From Pseudomonadota bacterium (GTDB lineage: Bacteria; Pseudomonadota; Alphaproteobacteria; RF32; CAG-239), in the NCBI GenBank assembly GCA_918234285.1, contig CAKJXZ020000010.1, forward strand, positions 1-64,000: DNA of 64,000 nucleotides, read 5' to 3'. Position numbers and translations under genes: made by a program. This document shows, piece after piece, positions 1 through 19,451 of the stretch; position 1 is the stretch's first letter; every line of letters starts with the position of its first letter. A model generated the notes under the pieces. The model had not been told where the DNA came from. It did not search any database and saw only the letters and a program-made list of their open reading frames with translations.

Positions 1-374
1 CACCGCAAAAAGTCGGCGGGAATTTCTGGTGCAATAATAATGAACTAACTTCATTGCAAGGAGCACCGCAAAAAGTCGGCGGAGATTTTAGTTGCAGTAA
101 AAATAATGACTTATTATCTTTATTCGGATTGCCTAAAATGCCGGATGATCAGGAAGTGTATTGCGATTTGGTTTTAGCGGAAAAATATAATTGTCCGAAA
201 TCGAAAAATGATGGTATTTATTACCATGATTTGATTGAATGTACGGTTTATAAAAATGAGCTTAAAATAGCAGAGCTCCGGCAGAAAAAACATGAGGAAA
301 ATAAAGTCGCACAAGCTCGGTTGAAGGCCGGCTATGCCGCATTTAAGAAGAAACAGGCCGAGGAGCGGGAATAA
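1..374 (+). CDS. 5'-truncated LRR-like repeat protein (21-aa GAPQKVGGDFxC repeats) with KAGY...ERE C-terminal tag
   Basis: Frame is open from the window edge (PQKVGGNFWCNNNELTSLQGAPQKVGGDFSC...); 63-bp repeat unit; paralog of 10013..11047. Confidence 0.85.
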   Translation, partial: PQKVGGNFWCNNNELTSLQGAPQKVGGDFSCSKNNDLLSLFGLPKMPDDQEVYCDLVLAEKYNCPKSKNDGIYYHDLIECTVYKNELKIAELRQKKHEENKVAQARLKAGYAAFKKKQAEERE

Positions 375-388
375 AGTAATAATAAAAA

Positions 389-412
389 ACTCTGCGCTTT
401 GACGCAGAGCAT
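389..412. terminator. Probable bidirectional hairpin terminator
   Basis: ctctgcg-tttga-type loop-cgcagag hairpin flanked by A-runs between converging genes. Confidence 0.5.
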
Positions 413-432
413 AAAAAATATCAGAGCAAAAG

Positions 433-915
433 TTAATTATTTGCCTGTTGTATCGGGATTTTCTTGAACTTTTGTTTTTCATCCTGCGATTTCGGTACCG
501 TCACGGTTAAAACCCCGTTACTGTATCGTGCGGCGGCATTTTCATAATCCAAATCCCACGGCAACGGCACCGTGCGCTTAAATGCGCCGTAGCTGATTTC
601 CGAGAAAAACGCATCTTTTTCGGAAGTTTCGGTAACGTTTTTCTTTTCTCCGCAAATGGTTAAATAACCGTCGGAAGAAATGCGCAAATCAACATCATCT
701 TCGTTGATACCCGGAAGTTCGGCCGTCACGGTTACGGCATCTTTGGTTTCCGCAATTTGCAAATGCGGTTCCCAATCGCCGACCGCCGTTTCCGCCGTGG
801 CATCCGGATAATTCCAAAAATAATTCATTAAACGATTAAAGTCGCTTGAACGGCTGAACGGCGTCATTTCCTGATTATGGTTGCCGCAAGTACCGCGTGT
901 CATAATGTTTTTCAT
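433..915 (-). CDS. Hsp20/alpha-crystallin small heat shock protein
   Basis: AELPG, LTICGEK, YGAFKRTVPLP, A.YSNGVLTVTVPK motifs and C-terminal IPI motif. Confidence 0.92.
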   Translation of the reverse strand: MKNIMTRGTCGNHNQEMTPFSRSSDFNRLMNYFWNYPDATAETAVGDWEPHLQIAETKDAVTVTAELPGINEDDVDLRISSDGYLTICGEKKNVTETSEKDAFFSEISYGAFKRTVPLPWDLDYENAAARYSNGVLTVTVPKSQDEKQKFKKIPIQQANN

Positions 916-923
916 CTCAACTC

Positions 924-1070
924 CTATTTGCTTACTTCGATTTCGGTTTCTTCAACTTCGTATTCGGCAGGTGCCCCCTGCTTTTTACTGCCGCAACCAC
1001 ATCCGCTTTTGCTGTCGGAACTTGAGGCGGATGAATTACCGCCGTGTAAAGATTTTTTATTGATTTTCAT
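924..1070 (-). CDS. Small 48-aa protein upstream of hsp20 (absent from ORF track)
   Basis: AAGGAG RBS and ATG; MKINKKSLHGGNSSASSSDSKSGCGCGSKKQGAPAEYEVEETEIEVSK; stop overlaps the hsp20 RBS. Confidence 0.7.
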   Translation of the reverse strand: MKINKKSLHGGNSSASSSDSKSGCGCGSKKQGAPAEYEVEETEIEVSK

Positions 1071-1241
1071 ATTTTTTCTCCTTTAATTGTTATATTTATC
1101 AAACAAATAGTCCTTATGCTTAAATAAATGCAAAAGCGGCAAATCAAAGCTGTCCGTTTGGCCAATATATACAATTATTTTGCAAATAAAATAACTTGCA
1201 TTAGCGCGAAAAATTTCCTAAATTATTGCTGAGAGGTCAAC

Positions 1242-1649
1242 GTGAAAAAGTTTTATTGTTTTTATTGTCAAAAAGATGTGCAACCGTTCAAATTGCTAAA
1301 GTGGCGCTTTTGCCCGATGTGTAAACACTATATGAGCGATGACGGTGAGGGTTTTTATAAAATATGTGACCGTTGTGAGGCAAATATGCCGGCCGATGCC
1401 GCGCACTGCTTAAAGTGCGGCTATGCGTTTAAGGGGGATAGTGCTCGCAAAGAATACGGCAATTTACCGGTTAATTTGCCGATTGGTAAAGGATGGGGCG
1501 AAAGCATAATAAGCGCCGTCATCGTTATTTTGAGTATTTTGGCCGGATTTGCGATTTTGTATTTGTCCTTTTATGCGGTTTTATTCATTATTGTTGTCGG
1601 GTTTGTTTGGTTTTTATTGAATATGCTGCGGATAAAAATGCGTTTTTAA
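1242..1649 (+). CDS. Zinc-ribbon protein with C-terminal transmembrane helices
   Basis: Four CxxC pairs and a hydrophobic C-terminus; GAGG RBS before GTG start. Confidence 0.75.
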   Translation: MKKFYCFYCQKDVQPFKLLKWRFCPMCKHYMSDDGEGFYKICDRCEANMPADAAHCLKCGYAFKGDSARKEYGNLPVNLPIGKGWGESIISAVIVILSILAGFAILYLSFYAVLFIIVVGFVWFLLNMLRIKMRF

Positions 1650-1690
1650 CAAATATTCCCGAAAGCCGTCAAAGCGTTTCGGGAATACTG

Positions 1691-1906
1691 TTACTTGTAG
1701 AGTTCTCTGCGCCACCTGAGGTAAGACGCACGAAGTCTGCGCACTGTATCTGAATGTTCTTTAAGGGTTCGGCCACGTGGCTTTTGGGCCTTAATTTCTT
1801 CAATGACACAGTTGACTTTTTTAAGGTACCGCTGCTTTTCTGACCTATCCAGGTTCTTTAACTTCATAAGAGTTTTTCTCGCGGCAATCGAATAATTTTT
1901 TTCCAT
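1691..1906 (-). CDS. Small basic hypothetical protein
   Basis: 71-aa ORF with upstream TTGACT-N16-TAAAAT promoter (1947-1974) and a downstream hairpin (about 1652-1690). Confidence 0.55.
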   Translation of the reverse strand: MEKNYSIAARKTLMKLKNLDRSEKQRYLKKVNCVIEEIKAQKPRGRTLKEHSDTVRRLRASYLRWRRELYK

Positions 1907-1980
1907 AACGCAAGAATAATAGCTAAATCATATATTTACGGTCTTAATTTTATACAAGTGAGCGCAAAAGTCAAGTTGAT

Positions 1981-3093
1981 TTATTTTTCGCCTTTTTCCT
2001 GCAAAATATCGATAACCGCGAAAATGCTGTATAACTGGCTGACGACTTCACGCACTTTGGCATAATCCAGCGCCGGCGTAAACAGCGAAGTGGTTTCAAA
2101 CATATCTTTACGGGTATGTACGGCCAGCATCAGTTTATTATTAAAAAAGCTGAAGTCGATGTGTCTGCCGTGAAAAAGTTTTCTGACGTCGTTTATTTTT
2201 TCCATAAACACCGGGGTCAAAATATAGCGTGCCGCCACCTGATTATCGGTAAGAACCTTCCATTCGCGATTGAACGCTATTTGTTCCAGTTTGACTTTTT
2301 GTGTTGCTCTTTTGTTGTCTTTAAAAAGCTTTAACCAGCCCCAAATTACAAAACTGCCGATTAATATACCCAAATAAATAAACAGCCCGACTTCAAACAA
2401 ATCTTCGGCAAGCATAAAAATCGCCGCAATCACCCCTATCATATTAATCAACAACAGTACCCAAACTATCAAACGCAGATTGTCTTTGAACATCGCCCCA
2501 AAGTTGCCGCGATGTTTTACCACGGTTTTTCCTCTAAATTTTTTGTTGAATTCAAGCAAAATAATCACGCCTTTGAAAATGCTGTAATCGTTTTTACTGC
2601 CCTTAACCAATAACTTTTGCTCGGAAACGCTGATTTTGGTATTTTTGTGTGTTCCTTCAAAAGAATCATCGGTTTCCGTGTTATCAAACTGACTGAACAT
2701 TTCGGATTTTTCGATGTCTTTTGTATTTATCGTTGAAACAAAACTGTATTGAAACGTACCCCAAAACGACAGGATTTTATCCATAACCAGAGATTTGGTT
2801 TCAACACAATAATCAAAAAACGGCACAATACACACATAACCCATGGCAATAAGTATGAACATGAAGAGTTTTAAGAATCCTTCGCTGGTGTACAATTCCT
2901 TGCTGATTGTGCCGTTTATGCATAGAAATATCACAAATAAAACGATGGCCATACAAGTAATAAAACGTCGCCAAAATATATTTAAATATTTTTTTCTTGC
3001 CGGCTCCAACTGTTCGTATTTTTGGCGCAGATTTTTATCGTAGAACAATTTAAAATCCTGCTGCAATTTTGCTAATTCGTAATTTACTTTCAT
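1981..3093 (-). CDS. DUF3137-like membrane protein
   Basis: Two TM pairs; DDSFEG, F.G.T, ARYILTPVFME motifs. Confidence 0.7.
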   Translation of the reverse strand: MKVNYELAKLQQDFKLFYDKNLRQKYEQLEPARKKYLNIFWRRFITCMAIVLFVIFLCINGTISKELYTSEGFLKLFMFILIAMGYVCIVPFFDYCVETKSLVMDKILSFWGTFQYSFVSTINTKDIEKSEMFSQFDNTETDDSFEGTHKNTKISVSEQKLLVKGSKNDYSIFKGVIILLEFNKKFRGKTVVKHRGNFGAMFKDNLRLIVWVLLLINMIGVIAAIFMLAEDLFEVGLFIYLGILIGSFVIWGWLKLFKDNKRATQKVKLEQIAFNREWKVLTDNQVAARYILTPVFMEKINDVRKLFHGRHIDFSFFNNKLMLAVHTRKDMFETTSLFTPALDYAKVREVVSQLYSIFAVIDILQEKGEK

Positions 3094-3096
3094 CTT

Positions 3097-3693
3097 TTAT
3101 TTCCAGTCAATAACGGGATATTTTTGCCAGCCGCTTAAGTTATAATGCCACCATTCGTGGGGAATTGCCTCAAAACCGCAACTTTCCATCAGTGCTTTCA
3201 AAAATGTCCGATTTTCAAGCGCCTCCGCTGAGACTTCCATATAATCGTGTCGCGCTTTTTTAAGATGAGTTTGAAACTCCGTAAAATCGCCGGCGCAAAC
3301 CTGCTGTTGAAATTGCGGCTCATAAGCATCAATTTCGGTCGGATACGGAAGGTTGTTACCGTTTGCATCGGTTAAACACACATCAACCGCGGTGCCGTGA
3401 CAATGGTTGGAGCGTTCCGCTGTTGCCGCAAAAAAGCCTTTAAACGGAATTATTTCCAGCATTTTTTGATGAGCCAGTGGCGGGCGATAAGCATCGCAAA
3501 TTCGCATTTTAAAATTTTTCTCCCGCAAAACAGGCACTGCTCGCAAAAGCGCCGCGGCAGTATCTTTATGCATATACGCTTGGTTAGCGTAGCCGATTTC
3601 CTCATAAACGGCGCGTCCCGTCATATTATTTTGGCGCGCATACATCATATCAATAATAAAAAGCGGGTGTTCAAACTTAACCAGATTTTCCAT
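3097..3693 (-). CDS. ddpX: D-alanyl-D-alanine dipeptidase (M15D, VanX/DdpX family)
   Basis: DAYRP, SNHCHGTAVD, EWWHY motifs; start reassigned to MENLV at 3693 with AAGGAG RBS. Confidence 0.88.
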   Translation of the reverse strand: MENLVKFEHPLFIIDMMYARQNNMTGRAVYEEIGYANQAYMHKDTAAALLRAVPVLREKNFKMRICDAYRPPLAHQKMLEIIPFKGFFAATAERSNHCHGTAVDVCLTDANGNNLPYPTEIDAYEPQFQQQVCAGDFTEFQTHLKKARHDYMEVSAEALENRTFLKALMESCGFEAIPHEWWHYNLSGWQKYPVIDWK

Positions 3694-3769
3694 AATCCAT
3701 ACTCCTTGAAGGGTAATGTAACAAAAAATATTTGCGGTTGCAATAAAATAAAACAAACGCGGTTTTAGA

Positions 3770-3798
3770 TTGACAACCGTGTTTTTATGACGTAACTT
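3770..3798 (+). promoter_or_regulatory. Sigma70-like promoter
   Basis: TTGACA (3770-3775), 17-bp spacer, TAACTT. Confidence 0.55.
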
Positions 3799-3804
3799 TA
3801 TCTT

Positions 3805-3998
3805 GCGTAAGATGATAACTTGCGTGAGGTTTAGAACCCTCTGAATAGTTATCTTGTTTCTGCAAGATGTAAAATTACTTCCTGCGATGTGGCAGGAAGG
3901 TAGTGAATAAGTTGCTTTCTTGCAAAGCGACAAATAGCTACACTATTCTATTCAATAGGTTCTGACTTCCTGCTACTCCTCATCAGGGTAGTTTTTTT
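3805..3998 (+). ncRNA. Candidate structured ncRNA or attenuator leader, family unknown
   Basis: Promoter, long closing stem, three internal hairpins, terminal hairpin plus T-run. Confidence 0.55.
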
Positions 3999-4017
3999 GT
4001 TTTATAAAAGAGAAAAA

Positions 4018-4263
4018 ATGTCACAAGATTGTTTTCTGCCCGACGGAACGGTACGCGTTAGTGAAACCGTTACATACTATCGTTATGTGCCGCAAAAAAT
4101 TTATGAAATTGATATGGCTCTGAATTTTCTGAATGATGATGAACTGATTAAAGTGATGAAATATATATCGCGCATAACCGGCAAACGTTATACTTTCAGA
4201 AGCTTGCAAAAGCCCGTGTCGGCAAAACAACTTTCTCGCGCCATAAACCGCTTAAACAAATAA
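4018..4263 (+). CDS. Hypothetical protein
   Basis: ORF with ATG at 4018 directly after the structured leader. Confidence 0.6.
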   Translation: MSQDCFLPDGTVRVSETVTYYRYVPQKIYEIDMALNFLNDDELIKVMKYISRITGKRYTFRSLQKPVSAKQLSRAINRLNK

Positions 4264-4350
4264 TTTTTTTAATATATCTGTTTCGGCGATTGAAATTTCT
4301 CCGCCGCAAAATATTTATATGGGTGTAAACTTACAGCAGAGGAGAGAAAA

Positions 4351-4587
4351 ATGACACAAGCAAGCGACAATCTTCGCACCCATTCCGCTAAAACCAAAGA
4401 ATTTATCAAGGCCAAAAATACCGGTTTTGTTGAAGATATTTTTGCCCGTTACCATAATAAAATGCGCGATGAAATAGAGTTTTCGGAAGCCGATTTTTAT
4501 GAAGACAATATTTATGATGAGCCGGAATATCAGCGTACTCCGCGTTTTAAAGATTATAATGACAACCGCCACGAAATTCGCCATTAA
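4351..4587 (+). CDS. Small hypothetical protein
   Basis: GAGGAG RBS; 78 aa; followed by hairpin terminator. Confidence 0.7.
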   Translation: MTQASDNLRTHSAKTKEFIKAKNTGFVEDIFARYHNKMRDEIEFSEADFYEDNIYDEPEYQRTPRFKDYNDNRHEIRH

Positions 4588-4617
4588 TCTTTAACTAAAG
4601 CCCTATTTTGCAGGGCT

Positions 4618-5184
4618 TTATTTTTTATAAATTTTACCGTTTTCAAGTGTCAGCCGAATAATTTCGGCATTAGGAATTTTATCCTGGAAGACACCGAGAT
4701 GAATCAATAGCGAACGTATCACTGCCGAATGTGCCGAAATGCCGATATTTTGATAGGGCTCGTTTTGTAAAAAAACAATAAAATCAAGCACGCGATTTAG
4801 GATTTGCCGCTTGCTTTCGCCGCCATCAAAAGCGTAATCCATATCCTTAAAATCGCGCCATCGTTTATATTCTTTTGTAAGTTGCGTTTGAATGTCTGTT
4901 TTAAGCATTCCTTCGGCAATACCGAAATTGCCTTCGATTAAGCGTTCATCGACAATCAGCGGAACTTTTTTTGACTGTGCTACCGCCGCACCGGTTTGAT
5001 ATGCACGCTCTAACGGACTGGTATAAATGACATCAAGCTCTATATCAGCAAATTGAGCCGCCAAAACTTTTGCTTGTGCCAAACCGTCGGCATTCAACGG
5101 CGGGTTATTGCTTTGCCCCTGAAAGCGCCCTTCCTTATTTAAATCGGTCTCCCCGTGGCGAAAAACATAAAGATTTTTAATCAT
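4618..5184 (-). CDS. Histidine phosphatase family protein
   Basis: RHGET, SPLERAYQT, GGES, AH motifs. Confidence 0.9.
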   Translation of the reverse strand: MIKNLYVFRHGETDLNKEGRFQGQSNNPPLNADGLAQAKVLAAQFADIELDVIYTSPLERAYQTGAAVAQSKKVPLIVDERLIEGNFGIAEGMLKTDIQTQLTKEYKRWRDFKDMDYAFDGGESKRQILNRVLDFIVFLQNEPYQNIGISAHSAVIRSLLIHLGVFQDKIPNAEIIRLTLENGKIYKK

Positions 5185-6487
5185 ATTTTTCTCTTTTTAG
5201 GTTTGTTTTTTGCCATCCTTTGGCGGCGAGATTTATCATATCATCATAAACTCGCGACTGTGTTTGCGGTTCGGCCGTAACTCCGCAAATTACCTCTTTT
5301 CCGCTTTGCATAATTTCCGGAATTTCCCAAGCTTTATTTTCTAATTTATAGCGTGCCAAATCGGCAAACAACCGCGCTTCCATCATTTCGCCGAGTACCG
5401 AATACTTGATGCTCGGTTCAACCTTAAAGCGCTGTCTGAACACCGCAAAAGATTTTTGGTGTTCCGGCAAAACAAAGCTCTTTCCCTGTAATAAATCGGC
5501 AAAACTTTTATACACTATCGGATTTTTCCAACCGCCGCCGAATAAAATAAAATGCGGCGGCAGTTCAATGTTTGACGGAGTTAAAGTTAAGGCCTGCACG
5601 GCAATATATGCAGCAAAATATTCCAGTGTATGCACGGCATCGGCAAGCGGCAATTTTGCGGATTCAATCGCAGCAAAAACCTTATCTTTATGATAAAACT
5701 GCGGATCCCCCGATTTTGGCAGCGGCCTTTCGTAGTATCCGCGGCATATATCAAAAAATTCTTGCAACAATTCTGTGTCAAGCTTGCCATTTTTGCCGTA
5801 TTTGCCATCAATATCAAAGCTGTCAGCGGTATGGCTGCGAATAAAATTATCGACATATTCGTTAAACGGGCCGGCATCTCCGGCGATTTGCGCCTTACCT
5901 TGTACAATCCAAGCAAAATTCGATGTATTGCCGCCGTTATAATAACAGCCGTCCCCCTCGGTTGCGGCAATATGCGTATTATGCGGCGGCACCAACGGTG
6001 CACCGTCAAAGCCCGCCATTAACGGCGCCGAGCGAAAATCATATACAACTTTTATACCGGTTAAGTCAGCCAGCATTTTGCCCGAACCGATTTGTAACGT
6101 ATAAGGAAGAGTCCCTTCTGCCCGCGCTTTTGACGGCGGATTATGGTCAAGCGTTTTGCCGTGAAAACCGACGGCATCAATAGTGTTTTTATCAAGGTTA
6201 TTTTGCTCGCACATATCGTTAATTGCCGCGGCTATACCTTTGATATATTCATCATGAACTCGCTTAAAATCCGGCAAAGCAAGGATTTCAGCTTTGGTTT
6301 TGTTTTTAACGGCGGCGCGCAATTTTTCCATATCTTCCTGCATTTGCCGCGAATACGGCCGCGAAAAAGCACAAATATCTGTCATTTTATCGCCGGCAAA
6401 TTCGGTCAGCACCAAATCAATTGCGTCCATACTGTTGCCGGTCATATTTCCGATTATACGATATACCATTTCTTCCCTTATTAGCAT
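5177..6487 (-). CDS. anmK: Anhydro-N-acetylmuramic acid kinase
   Basis: MTGNSMDAID, GFHGKT, LQIG, DFRS, GAPLVP, DAGPFN, PKS, GGG..N motifs. Confidence 0.85.
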   Translation of the reverse strand: MLIREEMVYRIIGNMTGNSMDAIDLVLTEFAGDKMTDICAFSRPYSRQMQEDMEKLRAAVKNKTKAEILALPDFKRVHDEYIKGIAAAINDMCEQNNLDKNTIDAVGFHGKTLDHNPPSKARAEGTLPYTLQIGSGKMLADLTGIKVVYDFRSAPLMAGFDGAPLVPPHNTHIAATEGDGCYYNGGNTSNFAWIVQGKAQIAGDAGPFNEYVDNFIRSHTADSFDIDGKYGKNGKLDTELLQEFFDICRGYYERPLPKSGDPQFYHKDKVFAAIESAKLPLADAVHTLEYFAAYIAVQALTLTPSNIELPPHFILFGGGWKNPIVYKSFADLLQGKSFVLPEHQKSFAVFRQRFKVEPSIKYSVLGEMMEARLFADLARYKLENKAWEIPEIMQSGKEVICGVTAEPQTQSRVYDDMINLAAKGWQKTNLKREKYD

Positions 6488-6600
6488 AAACTTCCCTCTT
6501 TCTATCTATATCATCTCCGCCCATAAATCAAGATTATTAATCTTCTTGTTATATTGGAATCGATTTGCTTGGGTATATTTTAAAAGCGAAAGGAGATAAA

Positions 6601-6870
6601 ATGACAATACAAGAAAAAGGATTTTGGCACAAAACCAAAGAAGTAAGCGGTAATTTATGGGAGGATACCAAAACCGTTACCGAAGATGTGTGGGAGGGCA
6701 CCAAAAACATGGCCGGCGGTATTAAAGATGCTTTTATCGGCGATGATGAGGAAGAACTGCACGAAGAAATGCATTATTCGGCCAATACGGCGGATGATAA
6801 TATTTATGGTGAAGCGGAAATCACGGCTGAAGAAACTTTAAAAACTCCCAGACGACATACAAAGCACTAA
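6601..6870 (+). CDS. Small acidic protein with 11-mer amphipathic repeats
   Basis: AAGGAG RBS; W..TK repeats at 11-aa spacing. Confidence 0.7.
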   Translation: MTIQEKGFWHKTKEVSGNLWEDTKTVTEDVWEGTKNMAGGIKDAFIGDDEEELHEEMHYSANTADDNIYGEAEITAEETLKTPRRHTKH

Positions 6871-6925
6871 AAAAATACGGTCGGCAAACAAAATGCCGAC
6901 CGGACGAACTTTTATATGTATTTTA

Positions 6926-8002
6926 TTATTTATCTTTACCCAAAGTCGCATCGGAAATCTTCTGTTCTACGTATTTAGCAAAATTCGGTATTTTTTTCTT
7001 TTCCAGTTTGGTGTGCAAAATCGAATCCGCGGTATGCGTGACTTTCTTGCGCAGATTAGATAATTTGCTCTGCGTTTGTTTATTGATTAAATGGTCTTTA
7101 TACTGCTTATGGCGCATCCTGATTTTGCTGTATCTGGCCGCTTTTGCATTCGCATCTTCGAAATCGTTATATTTATATAAATATGCTACTTCTTCTTGCG
7201 TTACCGGAACACCGTGACGCATGCACCAATCTTCTATCCCGAAGTGATACGGATTATTACCCGGAGTAGGTAAACTTACTATTTTATCCGGTCCGATAAA
7301 GTTAATATCTTTAACACCGAGTTTTTTCAATACATCGGCAACATTTTTGGCGCAATTATTAGTAAAAATATCGTATCGCTTGCCGCCCTTCTTAATATTG
7401 TGTTTATCTATCGCGCGAATAATATCTTTCGGCTCTATTCCGAGTTGGCTCGGATAAATGAGATAATAATCGGCCAGGTCCTGATATTGCGGATACAGCG
7501 GCTCGGGATTCATAATGAGAACACGATTAATAACCCGATCTTTATATTGCATACAGGCGTGTCCGGTAAGAGAAATCCCCTCCAACGGAATAATACCGAT
7601 AAGAATCGGTTCTTCCGCCATCAAATCGAGTTTGCCGTCTTTATCGCGCGGAATCCTGTCCGTGACATCGCCGTTTTTGCGCAAAACTTTGCCGGTTTTT
7701 TCAAATTCTTCTTGCGGACTGCCGTCAAAATTCACCAAACAACGTACACCGTTTTTATCAACATATTGCCCTAAGCCTTTTTCGCGAGCAATCTCTTGTT
7801 CTTGTTGCGGAGTATCGGCCACGATTTTTTCCAAACCATGATGATAAGGGTTCAAATCGGAATGCTTAATACGATTAAAAAATTTAGAATTTTTAAAATT
7901 AACCCATTGCCGACGCAACCAAACAAATAAGTTGGCCTGGCTGTCAAAAGCCGTCGGGCGGCGATATCTGGTTTCTCTAAACGGTTGACGCGGCATATTC
8001 AT
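6926..8002 (-). CDS. Permuted papain-like (PPPDE/LRAT/DUF4105-like) protein with basic C-terminal tail
   Basis: GHA followed by YDIFTNNCA (His-before-Cys order); AGGAGG RBS. Confidence 0.65.
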   Translation of the reverse strand: MNMPRQPFRETRYRRPTAFDSQANLFVWLRRQWVNFKNSKFFNRIKHSDLNPYHHGLEKIVADTPQQEQEIAREKGLGQYVDKNGVRCLVNFDGSPQEEFEKTGKVLRKNGDVTDRIPRDKDGKLDLMAEEPILIGIIPLEGISLTGHACMQYKDRVINRVLIMNPEPLYPQYQDLADYYLIYPSQLGIEPKDIIRAIDKHNIKKGGKRYDIFTNNCAKNVADVLKKLGVKDINFIGPDKIVSLPTPGNNPYHFGIEDWCMRHGVPVTQEEVAYLYKYNDFEDANAKAARYSKIRMRHKQYKDHLINKQTQSKLSNLRKKVTHTADSILHTKLEKKKIPNFAKYVEQKISDATLGKDK

Positions 8003-8163
8003 CTCCTCCTTGTTATCTTAGCAAAAAACGTGCCAATTGTCAATCACGCTTTTTATTCAATGGTTTACCCGTTTTTATGCTGAAAAAATGGCGTATCATT
8101 TTGTTTGGGATTGACTTATGGCATCTACGGTATTACTTTTGTAAAAAATGTTAAGAGAAAAAA

Positions 8164-8751
8164 ATGCCGCAGATAGAATTCGCCATATTTGACATCGGTC
8201 AGGTTATTTATCCTTATACCTTGGCTCCGCTGGATGATTTAATGAAAAGTCTGGCCGTCGACAAAGACGGGCGGTCAGCATTGGAATATGACTACAATCC
8301 GTATATGCGAGGCGAGCTGACGGCTGAGCGTTTTGCTCAAGAATTGTGTTTGTTTTGCCATGTAAAATATAATAAAAAATTGTTGCCGCCGATTGACGAA
8401 GCTTTGCATCGGGGAAGGGGAAAAGAATATCCGCAAACGCTTGAAGCTATGTGTCAATTTCGAAAAAAAGGTGTAAAAATAGGGGTTTTATCAAATGCAA
8501 TACCGGCACTGAATGACGAATATACGGAACTGGTCGAGCCGGAATTCGTTTTTGTTTCATATAATATGGGGTTGTTGAAACCTGATGTAAAAATATATCA
8601 AACCATGGCGAAAAAATTGAAAACTTCTTACGAAAAAATCCTGTTTATCGACGATAAAGAAATAAATATTCGGGCGGCACAATCGCTCGGAATCAACGGA
8701 ATTATCTTCAAACCGGAAACCATTCTGCAGGAAATCGAACCGTATTTATAG
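8164..8751 (+). CDS. HAD-family hydrolase
   Basis: FDIGQV, LSN, KP, FIDD motifs. Confidence 0.88.
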   Translation: MPQIEFAIFDIGQVIYPYTLAPLDDLMKSLAVDKDGRSALEYDYNPYMRGELTAERFAQELCLFCHVKYNKKLLPPIDEALHRGRGKEYPQTLEAMCQFRKKGVKIGVLSNAIPALNDEYTELVEPEFVFVSYNMGLLKPDVKIYQTMAKKLKTSYEKILFIDDKEINIRAAQSLGINGIIFKPETILQEIEPYL

Positions 8752-8755
8752 AAAT

Positions 8756-10000
8756 TTATTTTTGCTGATTCTGTTCCACAAGAAGTTGATGGATATGTTT
8801 GGCGATTTTTTTACCTTGTTCCGCTCCCGCTTGGCATGCCTGCTCAAAAATTTGCAAATCTTCCCGATAAGTTTTAGTACCGATAACCAATTCCCGCACG
8901 GTAAGCGCCGGCAACAAACTTTGTTGTCCCGATTGTTCTTGCGAGTGCAGAAGGGCATTGGCCAGAGCATTCGTCATCAGCTTAAACATAACTTTGGAAT
9001 CCTCGGTTTCACCGGCACCTGTATTATTATGTTCTCGGCTCTCAATCTCGTTTCTGCTTGGGAAATATACCCCATCCGAGCCCAAGGTCATTATATCGTC
9101 GTAATTGCTTTTTTGTTTGATAACAAATACGTTACCCTGTCTGTCCGGATAAAAAGACAGCTTAAAATCAAACGGTTCATTCTCTGATGTTTGTTTTTGC
9201 AACAAATGAGTATCAACCCAATGCGAACGGTCATCACCCATACGAATTGAGGCATAAACCGCGGCGTTATTATAGTTCTCCTCAAGAGCCGTGTCATTAA
9301 GAGATTTGAACGACACCATATTCATTTTGGAAACACCTAAAGGACAAGCCGGAGCGTAAGCAACTACGGTTATTTGTTGTTGCACTTTGAGAATGTCGCC
9401 CGTATCATAACCTAATTTTTTCATTTTGTCGCGCATGACTTCTTCTAATTTCAGTGCGGTATATGCGCCGTGACAGTGAGCAAAAATAACTACTTCGGCC
9501 ATATTTTTTGCCGCCGTTTCAGCATCTATTTTAACTTTGCCGTTCAAGCGCGAAATGCGCGGAGCGATGATTTTTTCGTATAGCGAATCGATGTATTCCG
9601 GATTTTGTTCTTCTGCCGAAAAGCCGTCTTTTCCGCGACTGACTTCTTCCGACATATTGGTTCTACCGTGTTTTTTATACAGCAAAATGCGGGCATCTTC
9701 ATCACTAAAGTCTTTTGGAGTACTGTAACAGACCACATAAAAAGGAGTTTTTTTAATCATAGCGTCGTCGACATTACCGATTTTGAGGTATTTTTTCAAT
9801 TTTCCGGCCATTTGCAGAACGCCTTTATCGAGCATATATCCCAAATCATGCGGATTAAAGCCGTTGCCCGGAAAAGCAATCATAACCGACCCGTGCGAAA
9901 CTGCCTGTTCGGTTTTGTGCATAACCCCCTGCATTTCGTCATTATCAAACGAAACTTCGTATAAGGTGGCGGCGGTTTTGGCTGAATCGGTATTTGTCAT
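8756..10000 (-). CDS. Hypothetical protein, possible alpha/beta-hydrolase fold
   Basis: FPGNG, AHCHG (nucleophile-elbow-like with Cys), VVAYAPA; last gene of a four-gene operon. Confidence 0.6.
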   Translation of the reverse strand: MTNTDSAKTAATLYEVSFDNDEMQGVMHKTEQAVSHGSVMIAFPGNGFNPHDLGYMLDKGVLQMAGKLKKYLKIGNVDDAMIKKTPFYVVCYSTPKDFSDEDARILLYKKHGRTNMSEEVSRGKDGFSAEEQNPEYIDSLYEKIIAPRISRLNGKVKIDAETAAKNMAEVVIFAHCHGAYTALKLEEVMRDKMKKLGYDTGDILKVQQQITVVAYAPACPLGVSKMNMVSFKSLNDTALEENYNNAAVYASIRMGDDRSHWVDTHLLQKQTSENEPFDFKLSFYPDRQGNVFVIKQKSNYDDIMTLGSDGVYFPSRNEIESREHNNTGAGETEDSKVMFKLMTNALANALLHSQEQSGQQSLLPALTVRELVIGTKTYREDLQIFEQACQAGAEQGKKIAKHIHQLLVEQNQQK

Positions 10001-10012
10001 CTGCTTTTCTCC

Positions 10013-11047
10013 TTATTCGCGTTCTTCTGTCTGTTTCTGTTTTTTAAATGCCGCATAGCCGGCTTTGAATTTAGCCGCTTTCCGCTCTTTTTCCTCATGC
10101 TTTTTTTGGCGGATTTTATGGGCGGATAACTCGCTTTGGTATTTTGCGCTTTTAGTTAAGTTTTTATAATTGATATAATATTCGCCGTCTTCATTAATAA
10201 ATTTCATACAATTGTATTCTTCCATTAATTTCTTATCGCAATATATTTTTTTATTTTTAGATATTTCCGGTATTTCAAACAAAGAGGATAAGGCATCATG
10301 ACCTTTGCACAAAAAATCTCCGCCGACTTTTTGCGGTGCTCCTTTTAATGAAGTCAGTTGATTATAGTCGCAATCAAAATTTCCGCCAACTTCTTGCGGC
10401 GCTCCCTCCAAGGATGTCAGAAGATTTTTGTAGCAATCAAAATTTCTACCGACTTTTTGTGGTGCCCCTTCTAAAGAGGTTAATTTGTTATTACCACAGA
10501 TAAAATCTCCACCAACTTCTTGCGGCGCTCCGACTAAGGTAGTCAGTTTATTGCCGCTGCAATAAAAATTTCCGCCGACTTTTCGCGGTGCACCTTCTAA
10601 GGTGGTCAGTTGATTATAACCGCAGTAAAAAGTTCCCCCGATTTCCTTAGGAGTTCCCACTAGCGACGTCAGTTGATTACAGCTGCAACTAAAATCTCCA
10701 CCAACTTCTTGCGGCGCACCTTGTAAAATAGTCAGCGTATTATAGTCGCATATAAAATCTCCGCCGACTTTTCGCGGTGCACCTTTCAGAGAGGTAAGTT
10801 GATTATGGCTACAATTAAAATCGCCCTCCACTGTAACCTTTGATAAATCCGGCAATTCGGTCAGGTCTTTTTCACTCAAGTCTAAGTTTCCCTTAATCAC
10901 AAAATCGTCCGGTAAATTGGTAAGAATATAATCTTTCCCGCCTTGTGCGAGATGAAATACCCCGTCCACTTTCCGCAGCGTGCATTCTTCCGTTTTTCCG
11001 CCGCCGATTATTTTATCTTTAAATTGCTTTATCAAATTTTTCAGCAT
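10013..11047 (-). CDS. LRR-like repeat protein (8 full 21-aa repeats) with KAGY...ERE tag
   Basis: LTSLxGAPxxVGGxFxCxxN tandem repeats with 63-bp period. Confidence 0.9.
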   Translation of the reverse strand: MLKNLIKQFKDKIIGGGKTEECTLRKVDGVFHLAQGGKDYILTNLPDDFVIKGNLDLSEKDLTELPDLSKVTVEGDFNCSHNQLTSLKGAPRKVGGDFICDYNTLTILQGAPQEVGGDFSCSCNQLTSLVGTPKEIGGTFYCGYNQLTTLEGAPRKVGGNFYCSGNKLTTLVGAPQEVGGDFICGNNKLTSLEGAPQKVGRNFDCYKNLLTSLEGAPQEVGGNFDCDYNQLTSLKGAPQKVGGDFLCKGHDALSSLFEIPEISKNKKIYCDKKLMEEYNCMKFINEDGEYYINYKNLTKSAKYQSELSAHKIRQKKHEEKERKAAKFKAGYAAFKKQKQTEERE

Positions 11048-11059
11048 AATTTAATCTCC

Positions 11060-11620
11060 TCATTCTCGCTCTTGCGGGTGTCGTTTTTTGAATGATTCAT
11101 AGCCGGCTTTTAATTTAGCCTGTCTTTCTTTATCCCTTTTTTCGCGTTCCGAAATTACTTGGCGGAGTTTTTTGATTTTATTTTCGCTTGCCTTATTCAT
11201 AACGGCTGTTTCTTCTTCGGAACGACGAATTAACGCGCCCCAGCGGTTGTCTTTTTTTTCTAACTTCTTATAAAAATCAAAATACTCGTCAATCGTCATA
11301 ACAATTTGTTTGCCTTTATCGTCTGTCCACGGATGGTCATCCCCCCTGAAGCCCATGCCCATATCATAAAATTTTTCAAATTTCATCATTTCAAAACCCA
11401 AAAGCTCGCCGTTTTCCATAATCGGCAGGCCGTAATAAAACTCACGCACATCTCCGCGCCAAGTTACGCTGTAATTGGTTTTTTCGCATCCTTCTTTTTC
11501 AAAGCTGTCGACCAAACGCTGCTTTTCTTCTTCATAATATTCTTTTCTGGCTTCTGCCATTTCTTTATCGCTGAATTCTTCCGACATGGTGTACTCCCGT
11601 TTATAATCGTTATCCGTCAT
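11060..11620 (-). CDS. Hypothetical protein with KAGY...ERE tag
   Basis: 186-aa ORF overlapping the upstream gene; ends LKAGYESFKKRHPQERE. Confidence 0.8.
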   Translation of the reverse strand: MTDNDYKREYTMSEEFSDKEMAEARKEYYEEEKQRLVDSFEKEGCEKTNYSVTWRGDVREFYYGLPIMENGELLGFEMMKFEKFYDMGMGFRGDDHPWTDDKGKQIVMTIDEYFDFYKKLEKKDNRWGALIRRSEEETAVMNKASENKIKKLRQVISEREKRDKERQAKLKAGYESFKKRHPQERE

Positions 11621-13121
11621 TTTGGGTTATTTTGTGCCTTAGAGCGGCAATTTCCAAAGTTGTTTGTTTAACCGGCTCTCGGTTTGTTTTCGGGCTCGGA
11701 GCTTCTTTGGTGCGGTTTTTCAAGTCGTTGATTTTGTTTTGCATTTCTATTTTTGCAATCGCCGGCTCCAAATATTTTGCCGAATATGCTTTGCGAATCT
11801 CCGTCGCTGTTTTCGGGTCATAATCGGCATAAACCCGATTTTCCGACGGCTTTTCGTTCTTTTCTCTGAAACCGAGAACACGCCCTTCGTCAACACCTAA
11901 AGTCAGAGCAACCTCCAGAGCATCTTTTCCGGAGCAATCAATATCCGGCTTATGCCCGACAACCTCGATATTTTCTCCGGTTTTATCCCAATAAGTCAGC
12001 TTGGTAACCGCAACCCGCATTTTGCCGCCCCAAGGGGTGTTGAACGTTCCTTGCGTGTATTGCTGCATTCCGGCCGTGTTTTCACCGATATACCTGACGT
12101 TGGGATGATGATAAAACGACGTATACGCGCTTTCGGCCGACGAACCGACGTCGCGATCAACGAGAATATCCGTTTTTCCCCGATAGCCTGTCGCTTCGTT
12201 AAACGGATAATATACCTCGGTTTCATCAAAAATTACTTTGTGTTCGCCGGAAAAATTTTGCCGCCGGATTAAATCTTCGGCCATTAAACCGACCGGCTCG
12301 TAATTTTGCGATTTATAGGCACCGTGTTTATGCAAAAAATAGTCGGAAAGCGGGGTGTCTTTTATTTCGCAACGTTTATAGGTATTCAGCATATTGCCGT
12401 ACAGGCGTTTGGCGATATGGTCTATCGGCTTATCTTCGCCGCCGCGGTTTCCCCGTACATCGATAATTATGCGTCCTTTATCCCATTTTTCTTTGTTTTC
12501 CAAATATACCTTATCAAATGTATCTATAAAATCCTTCCATCCTTCATACGTATTCGGACGGCACAAATTCGGAATACTGACAATCAAAACGTCTTCATCG
12601 CCGATTTTCATTGTGCCGACAGACCAGGTAGGGATTTTTTGCCCCTCGATTTCGGTGTATCCGTCGGCAACGGACTGATAGCCGTATGCGCCGTAATCCT
12701 TCTTGCGTTTGGCAAAGCTGAAATTGCTGCCGACGCTCGGTTTTTCCTTTGTTCCGCCGCCGTGAAACGTTTCTTTGCCGCTGCTTGCTTCAAAATGTCT
12801 GTCTTCAATATATTCCGCTGTTTTTTCAATCATTTCCCGCAAAAATTCCCCTTGTTTGCGGACGGAACTTATATCGGCATACATCTGCTCGATTGCCGAT
12901 TTAAATTTTGCCTGATTTTCTGCGCTGAAACTCTCAAAACTGACATGCTCACGGGCAGCTCTGGCATAAAAAGCCAAATAAAAACGCTGCTGTTCAGGGG
13001 TCAGCGGACGCAAATCGTTTTCTGCCGCTTGTGCTTTATCGGCGGACTGATACGGCTTCATCATTTCTTCATCGGAAATGCTGGCTGTAATTTGCTCAAA
13101 CGACAAACGCTTACCCGACAT
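11610..13121 (-). CDS. S41-family (C-terminal-processing-like) peptidase without signal peptide
   Basis: IIDVRGNRGG, VGSSAES, IGENTAG, G..PDI motifs. Confidence 0.8.
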   Translation of the reverse strand: MSGKRLSFEQITASISDEEMMKPYQSADKAQAAENDLRPLTPEQQRFYLAFYARAAREHVSFESFSAENQAKFKSAIEQMYADISSVRKQGEFLREMIEKTAEYIEDRHFEASSGKETFHGGGTKEKPSVGSNFSFAKRKKDYGAYGYQSVADGYTEIEGQKIPTWSVGTMKIGDEDVLIVSIPNLCRPNTYEGWKDFIDTFDKVYLENKEKWDKGRIIIDVRGNRGGEDKPIDHIAKRLYGNMLNTYKRCEIKDTPLSDYFLHKHGAYKSQNYEPVGLMAEDLIRRQNFSGEHKVIFDETEVYYPFNEATGYRGKTDILVDRDVGSSAESAYTSFYHHPNVRYIGENTAGMQQYTQGTFNTPWGGKMRVAVTKLTYWDKTGENIEVVGHKPDIDCSGKDALEVALTLGVDEGRVLGFREKNEKPSENRVYADYDPKTATEIRKAYSAKYLEPAIAKIEMQNKINDLKNRTKEAPSPKTNREPVKQTTLEIAALRHKITQNDG

Positions 13122-14726: not shown

Positions 14727-15308
14727 CTATTGAAATGGTTTGAAAACGGATTTAAATTCTTCAAAAGTTATAACATTGTCATGGTTAGCGTCAATATTGC
14801 GAAATTGTTCACGACTGCTCGACGGCAAAGAAGTAAAATCAAAATTCAGATATTCGTCTTTTGATATTTTGTTGTCCTTATCCGCATCCATTGCCAGAAC
14901 ATATTTCGGACCGAAATCTTCAATGTAATTTCCCGTGAAAGTGTTTTTATAGTCTTCTGCCGCTAGATATCCGTCGGCGTCGTTATCCAAATACTCAAAA
15001 TATGCCGCCAAGTCTTCTTTATATTTTGCATCGTCAACCACTTCAAAAAACCAGTATTGTTGTTTTGTTAAATTACCGGTTTTTTGCAAAGCCAAACTTT
15101 CATATATATTTGAAAGATGTGCCCGATATCCGGTTTCGCCGTTGCCGATAACAAATTCTTTTTCGGTAATTTTCCCGTCCTGATTAAAATCGTATTGCAT
15201 CATCATCTGCTCGGCCGCGGATTGCGAAGAAGGCGGTAATGTGGTTTGTGCATACACATTTGTTGCAAACAAAAAGACGGCTAACATAAGATTTATCAGA
15301 GCAATCAT
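14727..15308 (-). CDS. Secreted multi-EF-hand protein
   Basis: Signal peptide; DFNQDGKITEKE, DNDADGYLAAED, DADKDNKISKDE, DANHDNVITFEE loops. Confidence 0.85.
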   Translation of the reverse strand: MIALINLMLAVFLFATNVYAQTTLPPSSQSAAEQMMMQYDFNQDGKITEKEFVIGNGETGYRAHLSNIYESLALQKTGNLTKQQYWFFEVVDDAKYKEDLAAYFEYLDNDADGYLAAEDYKNTFTGNYIEDFGPKYVLAMDADKDNKISKDEYLNFDFTSLPSSSREQFRNIDANHDNVITFEEFKSVFKPFQ

Positions 15309-15556
15309 TTTAATCCCTTTTTACGCTTTGCTCCATACAATACGACATAAGTCTTAATTTTCAATAAAATTCCGCTAATTATGGATACAAACGGTTGGGA
15401 TATAAATTTAACCTGCTTGACATAGCCAGATATAAATGCTCTTATGGTAGCCGAGAGGTGTCGCGATTTTTAAAAATCCCGACCATTTGTAAACAGAAGT
15501 AAATGCGCAAATTGCTGAAATTCTTAAATCAGTAATTTTTGTTAAGGAAAAAACAA

Positions 15557-16532: not shown

Positions 16533-18131
16533 TTAGCGTCCTTCATTATGAATTTTAGCTGTTTCTGCAGCTGTTACGTTTGTTTTTTCTTTGTTTTCGG
16601 TTTTTCCCATAGCCGACTTTTCATTTCCGGATTTCGTTTCGTCAGATTTTTTTAATCTCTCTTTTATTTCATCCACTTTCTTATCTAAATTAACGGCGTC
16701 ATTATACGAGTTGCGATAAGTTGCCAGAGTTTGAAGCTTATCTTGACTGAACATATAGCCGCGTTGGTAATACATTGCGTTAATGATGGGAACTATCTTT
16801 ATATCAATAAATTCAGGTTTATTTTTACCTATTGTTACAAAAATATTTTCAATTGCCCGAACTTCTTTTTCTTCCATTCTTCTGGTGCTTAAAACAGATA
16901 ATAAACCATCTAAAACATCTTTTGCAAGATTTGGATTTTTTTCAACCATTTCATTAATTGTTTTCAAATACTTTTCGCCCGGAGCATTTACCTTGGGAGC
17001 CGTACGCTTGGCACCGGCAAACACTCCTTCCAGAATAATACCCATATGTTGCGGTTGAAGTTTTAAAACGGCATCTTGATAATTACCGAAAATGAACGGA
17101 TCTTTGCCGTCTTTCAAATCATTATTAAGCATTTCATTCAGAACAGTGGCAATATCTTTTGTTGCTTCTGGCTTCGTATCCAAATATTTATTAATTTTTT
17201 CCAAAACATTCCATTCGTTTCCGTTGCCGAAACGGGAAATATCTTTCAGTTCTTCTTTCATTGCGTCAAAGGCCGGCTTGACCAGGCTCGGTTTAATTTC
17301 TATGATGCTTTCATACAACTGTCCGCAAGAACTTACAACCGCAGTTTTATCGCCAACACCGTACGGATCATTTTCTTTCAGTTCATAAGTCGGGATATTT
17401 CCGGCACAAGATATAATTTTATCAGCCAAATCCGGCCTTGATGATAAAATTACTTTAAGACTAAAATATGCCCTTGGTATAGCCCAAGAATCGTTATTAG
17501 GCAACTTGAGTGCTTTATCAAAAATTTCGATGATTTTTTCAGAGGCAGCGGGATTATGTTTAGCAATATCTGCAAGCAACATATAACAAAACCTCAAACT
17601 TCTGTCATTGTCTTGTCCTTTTTGCACGCATTTTTCAATTAAATCCAAAAGTTCGGGATCTTTTGCTAAGGCAGGTTTGTCTTTTATAGAAGAGCTCAAA
17701 CCATAAAGATATAAGGTTTCAAGCGAAAAACCATCATTTTTTTCTGACTTTAAGCCGTCTTTCAAAATTGCAAAAGTGTCGTCAGTACAAAACGGCCATT
17801 TCTGTTTTAAGGAGTTACATGAAGAATAGATAGAGTGCAGTGTATATGGAGTATTATCAGGCGAAGCGACTTCATTTTTATAAATATTGCATATCTTTCT
17901 GACGGTATTTTCATCAAATGAAGATAAACCAAAACTAAAGCCAAAAAATTTTCCCGACTTTCTCCCTGCTTCTAAAGTAAGCGGTACAACTTTATCTATC
18001 ATATCAGGATAGGTATCAATAATTGTTTGCAGAGAAGTACTGTCAAAATTATGGTCTTCTTTAGATTGTCCGTTAATAAAAAGATTTTCAAATTTTTCGA
18101 TTTTTTTAAGAGCTTCCTGGCGTGTCATCAT
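16533..18131 (-). CDS. Alpha-helical (HEAT/ARM-like) repeat hypothetical protein
   Basis: Roughly 40-aa repeats (ND..SL...Y..L..I....P); charged tail ending NEGR. Confidence 0.7.
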   Translation of the reverse strand: MMTRQEALKKIEKFENLFINGQSKEDHNFDSTSLQTIIDTYPDMIDKVVPLTLEAGRKSGKFFGFSFGLSSFDENTVRKICNIYKNEVASPDNTPYTLHSIYSSCNSLKQKWPFCTDDTFAILKDGLKSEKNDGFSLETLYLYGLSSSIKDKPALAKDPELLDLIEKCVQKGQDNDRSLRFCYMLLADIAKHNPAASEKIIEIFDKALKLPNNDSWAIPRAYFSLKVILSSRPDLADKIISCAGNIPTYELKENDPYGVGDKTAVVSSCGQLYESIIEIKPSLVKPAFDAMKEELKDISRFGNGNEWNVLEKINKYLDTKPEATKDIATVLNEMLNNDLKDGKDPFIFGNYQDAVLKLQPQHMGIILEGVFAGAKRTAPKVNAPGEKYLKTINEMVEKNPNLAKDVLDGLLSVLSTRRMEEKEVRAIENIFVTIGKNKPEFIDIKIVPIINAMYYQRGYMFSQDKLQTLATYRNSYNDAVNLDKKVDEIKERLKKSDETKSGNEKSAMGKTENKEKTNVTAAETAKIHNEGR

Positions 18132-18159
18132 ATCAAAAATTCTCCTATAAAGAATTATA

Positions 18160-19161
18160 TTATCTTACTTTTCCCGTGTGGGATCTGTCGGTTAATGCTT
18201 TTACTGTACCATATATTTTATCCTGCGGAACTTCATTCCATTTATCATCATGTTTCAAATACAAGCGTCTACCATGATATTCGTTTAATTGCTTAATATT
18301 ATAAACGGTAGGATTGCTATGATTATAATGTTCTAAAATATATTCTCCGGCATCATGAATACGAGCAATAGATAATGGATCTTCAATATCAGATGCCAAG
18401 AATGTCGGCTTGTTAATTTTCAAAACAGATACATCGGAAGGCTCGTTATTATTTGAATAAATTGCGTTTTTAGGATCATTAGGATCTAAACGACTGTCTA
18501 TCAGCAGCGCTTTAGTTTGAAGCTGAGCATTATCATCTACTTGTTCGATTTCGCTTTTTCCGGTCATTCCGTGTTTAATTTTTGCCTCAACCGCAGGATT
18601 TGTCGCCATCATAATGCAATTGTGCTCGGTCGGCAGGTAATGATGCAAGTGCGCACCTGAACTCATTGCTTGGATTAATTCTAAAGAATATTGCCCCCGT
18701 AAATTCGGAATATTTACGTTAACCCTGATTTTACCGTTTTGATCAATTAAATCACGCAATCTGGAACTAAAACCATCCATGTCTTTCAATGCAGCAGATC
18801 GCCAAAAAGAATCTTTAGATTTTTCAGCTGTTTGAGCCGCTTTTAGTGTATTTTTTAAAACAGAAGTTAAAAGAGTTTCTCCGGTTACCGGTGAAGGTGT
18901 ATTGATTGTGCGATTAAATTGTTCTTCTGAAATAATCCCTTCATCACGGTATTTACAAAGAGCATCAACAACACGGAATGCGAGATTGTATGAATCGGGA
19001 GACGGTATACTGCCGGTAACATCGGGAGATATGGTTGTTGCCATTTCCTTTGTATTTAAAATTTCAGGATTTTCTTTTAAAATCTCAATACTGTGATTTT
19101 CTGCGTTCCATGTTAAAGCAACCAAAAAATCTTCAGCTAATTTTTCATAATCTTTATCCAT
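18160..19161 (-). CDS. Hypothetical protein with degenerate ankyrin-like motifs
   Basis: INTPSPVTGETLLTSVL and VNVNIPNLRGQYSLEL; ends GKVR. Confidence 0.6.
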   Translation of the reverse strand: MDKDYEKLAEDFLVALTWNAENHSIEILKENPEILNTKEMATTISPDVTGSIPSPDSYNLAFRVVDALCKYRDEGIISEEQFNRTINTPSPVTGETLLTSVLKNTLKAAQTAEKSKDSFWRSAALKDMDGFSSRLRDLIDQNGKIRVNVNIPNLRGQYSLELIQAMSSGAHLHHYLPTEHNCIMMATNPAVEAKIKHGMTGKSEIEQVDDNAQLQTKALLIDSRLDPNDPKNAIYSNNNEPSDVSVLKINKPTFLASDIEDPLSIARIHDAGEYILEHYNHSNPTVYNIKQLNEYHGRRLYLKHDDKWNEVPQDKIYGTVKALTDRSHTGKVR

Positions 19162-19451
19162 CTCCTGTCTCCCCGTTAGAATCGTTAACTATAATTTTAT
19201 TCTACCCCCCTTATAGACAAAAGTAAAGCATTTTTTGCAAAAAAAATAAAGTCATGCCTATTTTTTCGCAGTATGCGGAAAAATTCAAGGCATCTACCGC
19301 TTTTTTTATAAAATTTGAAGATCCTCTGAATTTTTTGCTTTCAGCAAAAAATAGGGGTGACATTATTGAAAAAAGTCCGATAGAAAATGAAAAAATGCTA
19401 TCTTTGGGAACTAAACAATCGGACTTCGCGAGAAACAACCCTAACAATGCA

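Follow-up and report, generated by a model that had tools for sequence, protein, structure and literature searches.

Variable recognition repeats joined to a constant C-terminal module are found in the ankyrin-repeat proteins of Orientia and the poxviruses, which end in an F-box-like PRANC domain. Among the substrates of type IV secretion systems, the Xanthomonas-type antibacterial effectors carry XVIPCD, which the cited part of PMC8740702 describes as a C-terminal VirD4-binding domain. Positively charged C-terminal VirB/D4 signals are described in the cited part of PMC10025392 for Agrobacterium VirF and VirE2 and for the tails of the Bartonella Beps, which have a BID domain; the Legionella E-block is treated there as well. 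Here we analysed the first 64 kb (64,000 nucleotides (nt); hereafter the window) of contig C10 (CAKJXZ020000010.1) from the 2.0-Mb, 71-contig genome (G000; GCA_918234285.1) of an uncultured alphaproteobacterium (Pseudomonadota; Alphaproteobacteria; RF32; CAG-239), in which three proteins end in the same short peptide module. The original prediction took this module for a C-terminal export tag that travels on unrelated proteins. Our results showed that the tag is the constant helix with which the members of one much-multiplied family of small leucine-rich repeat (LRR) proteins end, and that it is specific to this family and not a free module on unrelated proteins.

The tail resembled the PRANC families in that variable recognition repeats were joined to a constant C-terminal element in dozens of paralogues; no homology is implied, and PRANC is a recognised domain whereas the LRR tail is a short helix. 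With XVIPCD it shared a conserved C-terminal element, leaderless proteins and a genome with chromosomal VirB/VirD4 genes. XVIPCD differs, as the cited part of its source presents it, in having about 120 residues, several conserved motifs and a Gln-rich tail, compared with about 45 amino acids (aa), one helix, an ERE end and one family for the LRR tail. No Pfam family matched the LRR proteins of the window at E 0.01 or better, the presence of an XVIPCD model in this copy of Pfam being unconfirmed. The tail was also like the VirB/D4 signals and the E-block in its position at the extreme C-terminus, in a net charge that was positive over the last 46 aa and in the glutamates at its very end. In contrast to the VirB/D4 signals, which in the cited text are degenerate in sequence or, as in BID, form a larger folded domain, the LRR tail had a near-invariant 9-residue core, Lys as its basic residue in place of an Arg motif and a single family of carriers. 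The repeats were similar to those of Listeria internalin InlJ (3bz5), Salmonella SspH1/SspH2, Shigella IpaH and Yersinia YopM: they are 21-22 residues long, and the ladder position was occupied by a Cys in 98% of the 200 repeats analysed here. Internalins have a signal peptide and a cell-wall anchor, whereas the tail-bearing LRR proteins had neither and ended in a charged helix; IpaH and SspH carry a C-terminal NEL ligase domain, whereas the tail-bearing proteins consisted of LRR, cap and helix only, with no Pfam match. The family is of a familiar kind, an expanded repeat-protein family with constant ends, and the new details are the tail motif, the narrow lineage range and a natural cassette crossover.

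The tail and its carriers in the genome

The three peptides on which the original prediction was based were present exactly as quoted at the ends of the open reading frames (ORFs) 3..374 (+), 10013..11047 (-) and 11060..11620 (-). The genes and their tail-coding segments were as follows.

3..374 (+): 3' part of an LRR-family gene, its 5' end cut by the contig start, encoding the last LRR repeats, the C-cap (..VYCDLVLAEKYNCPK..) and the tail
~243..371 (+): tail of this gene (profile match), followed by the stop codon at 372..374
10013..11047 (-): complete LRR-family gene of 344 aa, with the N-cap (DGKDYILTNLPDDFVIKG), about nine 22-aa cysteine-ladder repeats, the C-cap and the tail helix (residues 301-343 in the model)
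10016..10150 (-): tail-coding segment of the 344-aa LRR gene, with the KAGY codons at 10055..10066
11060..11620 (-): chimera gene of 186 aa, with an orphan alpha/beta N-domain (residues ~1-140) and the LRR-family tail
11063..11188 (-): tail-coding segment of the 186-aa gene, with the KAGY codons at 11099..11110

The strict pattern KAGY..FKK occurred in 16 ORFs of the genome, each time 7-9 residues before the stop, and these ORFs were used as the seed of a hidden Markov model (HMM). The HMM found 36 ORFs with E values from 9e-25 to 5e-5, and the next ORF had an E value of 0.92. The 16 seeds among the 36 matched by construction, and the other 20 were independent finds. The match ended 0-2 residues ahead of the stop in all 36 carriers, so that the strictly C-terminal position held throughout the genome. 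The carriers were not diverse in their domains as had been proposed: 35 of the 36 were paralogues of one cysteine-ladder LRR family, or 3' remnants of such genes cut by a contig end or a stop, and the 186-aa protein was the sole non-LRR carrier. The claim that the tag is independent of the N-terminal domain could be judged on this third protein only, since the first two were paralogues of the same LRR family; the third, which has no LRR body, was a recombination chimera. With 36 carriers among some 1,790 ORFs that reach 100 aa, about 2% of the genes were given over to these small binders. No further ORF of at least 90 aa in the genome ended in ERE, EREE, ERED or EREG, and no further ORF of at least 120 aa had the aromatic motif of the tail.

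The conserved element was about 45 aa long rather than the roughly 35 aa first assigned to it, and it began directly after the LRR C-cap (..Y.SEL..). It consisted of a start next to the cap (Y.SEL), a charged stalk whose length varied, the core K-A-G-[YF]-A-A-F-K-K and the acidic end ERE(E). In the alignment of 34 tails, the G and the F were invariant, the A, K, K and the final E, R, E were conserved in at least 90%, and indels of 4-6 residues were confined to the charged middle. Because the length of the middle varies, the core would not be held at a fixed site of the LRR body, and the motif appears to be presented on a charged stalk. In the 21 full-length genes the last 46 aa had a net charge of +2 to +11, and the last 20 aa one of 0 to +6. 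In the same genes the protein bodies were acidic to neutral, and the tail was basic and contained no hydrophobic segment. The basic residues were mostly Lys, and the R-x-R pattern was absent from the 34-tail alignment. No Pfam or NCBIfam model covered the tail, and the best look-alikes of cap plus tail in the ESM Atlas scored 0.81-0.84, which is under the meaningful level. A literature search on LRR proteins, type IV C-terminal signals and Alphaproteobacteria gave no description of this tail in the titles and the starts of the abstracts of the papers listed, and the papers listed for PcfJ together with LRR proteins were unrelated.

The final codons of the three window tails differed synonymously (gagcgggaa, gaacgcgaa and gagcgagaa), and the selection at the protein level that had been read from these differences was borne out across the whole set. 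Over the nine core codons in all pairs of the 36 tails, the proportion of synonymous differences (pS) was 0.69, which is near saturation, and the nonsynonymous proportion (pN) was 0.096, about sevenfold rarer. For comparison, the N-cap codons of 21 genes gave a pS of 0.72 and a pN of 0.156. The tail core is under strong purifying selection at the protein level. In the AlphaFold model of the 344-aa LRR protein, the tail formed a single helix (residues 301-343) that was continuous with the C-cap, with block-mean pLDDT values of 92-95 over residues 301-340. In the model of the 186-aa protein, the tail lay in the helix of residues 127-180, and a second long helix was found at residues 18-43.

Family architecture, recombination and distribution

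Each family member was built from an N-cap (..FEFEQDGKTYNLYDLPDGFVIKG..LTELPDLSKV..), 22-residue repeats that differed in number and had the consensus GAPQxVGGxFxCxxNxLTSLx, a C-cap (..SLFGLP.M....IYCD..L.EKY.C..) and the tail. The 21 full-length genes, trimmed to the start codon, encoded 198-467 aa, with only the cap and the helix after the LRR. The maximal 15-residue hydropathy in these genes was 1.21 or less, which agrees with the lack of a signal peptide noted at the outset; neither a hydrophobic leader nor an anchor was present. The framework of the repeat was near-invariant in 200 repeats (F10 95%, C12 98%, N15 100%, L17 100% and L20 99%; at most 0.3 bits of entropy at these positions), whereas positions 9, 11, 13 and 14, all within G-x-F-x-C-x-x-N, reached 3.2-3.6 bits. 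The repeats are a constant scaffold with a hypervariable face. The only NCBIfam match, to internalin J, was sub-threshold (E 5e-10; 38 bits, with the cut-off at 1700). The solved structures that matched best in sequence were InlJ (3bz5; E 1.2e-12) and SspH2 (E 1.3e-9), and a Foldseek search with the AlphaFold model (mean pLDDT 93.3) placed the LRR domains of YopM, SspH1 and IpaH at the top ranks.

Most genes of the family were arranged in head-to-tail arrays, frequently at contig ends, and eight more family fragments ran off contig ends; the true copy number is therefore probably higher than 36. At most junctions the stop was followed within a few bases by GGAG or a similar purine-rich motif and then by the next gene (stop-GGAG-ATG). 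The terminal GAGGAA, which encodes the EE residues, was considered as the ribosome-binding site of the next gene and was rejected, since most of the following array genes have a GGAG-like motif after the stop.

The 186-aa protein with the tail on a different body was probably encoded in a short operon (S41-like peptidase, 186-aa protein, LRR protein, 414-aa protein), in which the S41-like gene would be the first. The two outer genes were as follows.

11610..13121 (-): S41-like peptidase gene, without a leader, overlapping the start of the 186-aa gene
8756..10000 (-): orphan gene of 414 aa, starting 12 nt after the stop of the LRR gene behind a GGAG; in the related genome G001 it directly follows the homologue of the 186-aa gene

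A word-index search with the 186-aa protein, which covered forms of similar length, yielded just two clusters from 48 candidates: that of the protein itself and another with 88% identity. Foldseek gave no match to its model at E 0.001 or better, leaving the N-domain an orphan. A homologue in genome G003 was 35% identical over the aligned residues (42% over residues 20-163); it kept the N-domain and had an unrelated C-terminus, and the tail was therefore either added to or lost from the 186-aa body. The corresponding gene of G001 matched the 186-aa gene of G000 as far as the KAGY codons (11099..11110). Beyond this point it matched the LRR gene of G000 from the KAGY codons in the tail of that gene (10055..10066), and the match continued past the stop and the GGAG into the 414-aa gene. 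The 1,044 nt between the KAGY codons of the two G000 genes were absent in G001. Since G001 switches template inside the KAGY codons, one crossover is enough to add or remove a 1,044-nt LRR cassette, and the chimera retained its tail in both genomes. Recombination with the adjacent LRR gene is the simplest route by which the 186-aa gene got its tail, and the constant ends make the LRR family recombinogenic. The tail has multiplied by tandem duplication and, in one case, recombination has grafted it onto a neighbour.

A search of 1.84 billion representative proteins with the profile of 34 tails gave 17 matches at E 0.001 or better. Sixteen of them ended 0-1 residues from the C-terminus and belonged to the same LRR family (13 with LRR repeats and 3 short cap-plus-tail fragments). 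The 17th, P0133 (2,897 aa), contained nine internal repeats of the ..LRAGFEAFRRN.. type and was rich in F..W motifs, which we take to resemble the centrin-binding Sfi1 repeats. This match was read as a short, compositionally biased similarity, which may be due to chance or may be a hint of mimicry. The LRR repeat itself was very widespread, with matches in 7,478 of 8,000 scored candidates; among the 120 matches listed, most were proteins of 430-600 aa with another N-terminal domain (some with PcfJ) that ended right after the last repeat. The tail was confined to a small LRR-only subfamily.

Within the genus, the tail profile matched 3 of 50 genomes (36 matches in G000, 36 in G001 and 5 weak ones in G003), and the LRR family was present in 14 of the 50 and expanded only in these three. 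The G003 tails were homologous but drifted, with five of the six inspected LRR ORFs ending in ..ADIKARFAAWQAQQAQKDGPEK (..[KR]FAAWQA.Q.QKDG.EK). More distant metagenomic relatives of the LRR proteins ended in ..NAEFSQWLKDN.. or ..AAFEAWLKQN... The feature that persisted in the diverged tails was a stripe of small and aromatic residues, [FY]-x-x-[FW], towards the end of a long charged helix. A second type of LRR tail (..EKSKELRRK.MRTIAAENVSPEKGV...KQILDGIGKSIEK) was found in G000 on one LRR gene of contig C71 (23549-24253, -) and was common to G007 and G054, and a related form with a different ending was present in G047. To judge from these endings, the LRR subfamilies each have a constant C-terminal extension of their own.

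Secretion machinery and candidate partners of the tail

A type IV secretion system, of a kind named in the original prediction, was encoded elsewhere in the genome. A VirB-type locus on contig C17 contained VirB2 (two copies), VirB4, VirB8 (two copies), VirB9 and VirB11, and it adjoined a type IVb pilus cluster with a PilO-like protein, a secretin and TcpQ. The whole region (C17:8320-49022) also held giant ORFs of 1,793, 1,412 and 1,404 aa, the latter two with beta-flower domains. VirD4 was not linked to the VirB locus and lay on contig C24 (33036-35252). Neither of two common relaxase families (PF03432 and PF08751) was found in G000, nor was a type VI secretion (T6SS) sheath or a phage-type sheath. 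The VirB/VirD4 system is probably chromosomal and non-conjugative. Type I secretion, which works with an uncleaved signal at the C-terminus, needs an ABC transporter of its own, a membrane fusion protein and TolC; TolC-like genes were present in G000, as was an ABC exporter on C17. G000 and G001 had both the tail and the machinery, but VirB4 and VirD4 were each found in 48 of the 50 genomes of the genus (VirD4 in 35 of 35 good-quality genomes). Because the machinery is genus-wide and the tail occurs in three genomes, their co-occurrence cannot support the idea of a signal. A predicted complex of VirD4 residues 126-737 with the tail alignment scored 0.00; no control complexes were run, and the score counts neither for nor against binding. 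Among 77 neighbours within 4 kb of the LRR arrays, no family was common to the arrays as a gene for a shared partner.

The reading that we favour, and regard as reasonably probable, is that a repertoire of hypervariable binders docks to one shared partner through the tail as its constant helix. Every variable LRR binder would dock to this partner by the common handle at its end, through the aromatic stripe held out on the charged helix. The VirB/VirD4 coupling protein would be the leading candidate for the single partner, in which case docking would serve export; a factor or membrane of a target cell, or self-association, would be the alternatives. Several observations weigh against a docking role. 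We infer the function from the conservation and the shape of the tail. The high pLDDT of a long helix can come from helical propensity alone, and the helix may pack on the LRR body in a purely structural role. The tails were more alike within a genome than between genomes (G000 and G001 compared with G003), and several G000 tails had identical core DNA; the similarity within genomes would also fit a recent lineage-specific expansion or some gene conversion. Furthermore, the library search did not return the cluster of the 186-aa protein itself and may therefore miss carriers on other domains.

A narrowed form of the first idea holds that the tail is a C-terminal translocation signal read by VirD4, and that the LRR repertoire and the 186-aa chimera are sent through VirB/VirD4 into a target cell. 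We regard this as possible, though less likely than not. The strictly C-terminal position, the net positive charge and the lack of a Sec leader in the carriers are in its favour, as are the VirB components on C17 and VirD4 on C24, the apparently non-conjugative character of a system with VirB4 and VirD4 in nearly all genomes and no relaxase of the two families found, the lack of either type of sheath in the search, an LRR domain closest to those of injected effectors and InlJ, and the chimera that kept its tail in two genomes. Such systems are known, from the cited parts of PMC10025392 and PMC8740702, to use positively charged signals and conserved recognition domains at the C-terminus of their substrates. 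On the other hand, an export signal should mark diverse substrates, and here it marked one family and one chimera; the machinery is genus-wide and the tail is restricted to three genomes; the Agrobacterium-type Arg motif was absent; and the tail was predicted to be a rigid helix and not disordered. VirB4, VirB9 and VirD4 were not found in G003, which has the diverged tail and is 83% complete, whereas VirB9 was found in the three other genomes tested; these missing genes appear to be weak evidence against a signal. The boldest version, which we hold to be equally doubtful, makes the helix a portable signal, defined by its sequence, for the genus-wide VirB/VirD4 system, a 45-residue single-helix counterpart of XVIPCD or BID by which at least 36 hypervariable LRR binders would be injected into another cell. 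If the tail is such a signal, the natural chimera implies that one crossover can move it to a new cargo.

The helix could instead have its role in the cell that makes it, or once it has been delivered. Being basic and amphipathic, it would attach to a membrane, or to a conserved factor, of a target cell, whether eukaryotic or bacterial, and the variable LRR face would pick the target. The aromatic stripe ([FL]-x3-[YF]-x2-F), which has Gly/Ala and Lys beside it in a basic helix, is consistent with this, the repeats bear out the architecture of a variable binder with a constant end, and the match of the tail profile to the nine internal P0133 repeats (..RAGFEAFRR..) would be a hint only. The target and delivery itself are suppositions, the P0133 match is short, biased in composition and possibly due to chance, and the acidic ERE end is unlike a plain membrane anchor, so that we consider this unlikely. 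Somewhat less likely still is a structural helix that packs back on its own LRR solenoid or C-cap for stability or pairs with itself into dimers or oligomers. The very high pLDDT, the continuity with the C-cap, the small-residue face (A-G-x-A-A), which suits close helix packing, and the second long helix (18-43) that the 186-aa model offers as a partner all agree with it; the mid-helix indels of 4-6 residues, which shift the register and the reach of the core, are hard to fit with a fixed site on the LRR body, and the tail works, or at least persists, on a body without LRR. Conservation at the DNA level, with the tail segment kept uniform by gene conversion and serving as a handle for recombination in the shuffling of LRR cassettes, is very improbable. 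The clean crossover within the KAGY codons that separates G000 from G001 by a 1,044-nt cassette, the subsets of tails identical in core DNA and the tandem arrays would suit it, but the synonymous sites of the core were near saturation at a low pN, so that it is the protein sequence which is kept. It follows that recombination results from the conserved ends and is not their main cause.

Neighbouring genes and significance

The genes of the window were otherwise chromosomal housekeeping genes, such as those for ribosomal proteins, rho and secB. Genes without a Pfam family lay among them near the LRR genes at 6926..8002 (-), 8756..10000 (-), 16536..19188 (-) and 20094..22190 (+), and the first two of these had no NCBIfam family either. 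Two further genes appeared to encode secreted, periplasmic or surface proteins.

14730..15320 (-): EF-hand protein of 197 aa with a clear N-terminal signal peptide, hence a secreted or periplasmic calcium-binding protein
24636..31274 (+): ORF of 2,213 aa, possibly a giant surface protein, whose only Pfam match was a BigA-like beta-sandwich near residue 1800

As a candidate for a cytoplasmic partner of the tail, the EF-hand protein encoded 3 kb from the LRR genes was rejected because of its signal peptide. Two DUF3137 paralogues with 45% identity were encoded at 1981..3093 (-), close to the truncated LRR gene with which the window begins, and at C17:47886-49022, at the end of the type IV locus.

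A second modular family was found in G000 outside the window, at C36:1-5947, C50:6891-9318, C24:74385-76859, C12:48570-49667 and C10:104467-105156. Its members shared modules of about 30-105 aa, most of them with 75-97% identity (..LFDNPDAIKQQNGQPSPVMQAIYRYL.. and ..PVPSENSPNPFA.EIQNYLYEHDDYNYKQLYGNTPPP..). These modules lay in a front part rich in Q, P, S and T, and the C-terminal domains of the members varied, some of them being peptidoglycan-hydrolase-like by eye (SLT-like or lysozyme-like). The architecture was like that of polymorphic toxins, and several members adjoined LRR arrays.

If the tail is only the constant end of its own family, the case would be an ordinary one, though striking in scale. 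If it is the handle that links the binder repertoire with machinery for export or with a factor of the target cell, it would provide a short, recognisable sequence marker for such cargo in uncultured Alphaproteobacteria and a compact natural tag for delivery experiments. The crossover seen in natural genomes indicates that constant ends allow binder cassettes to be gained, lost and grafted onto another gene.

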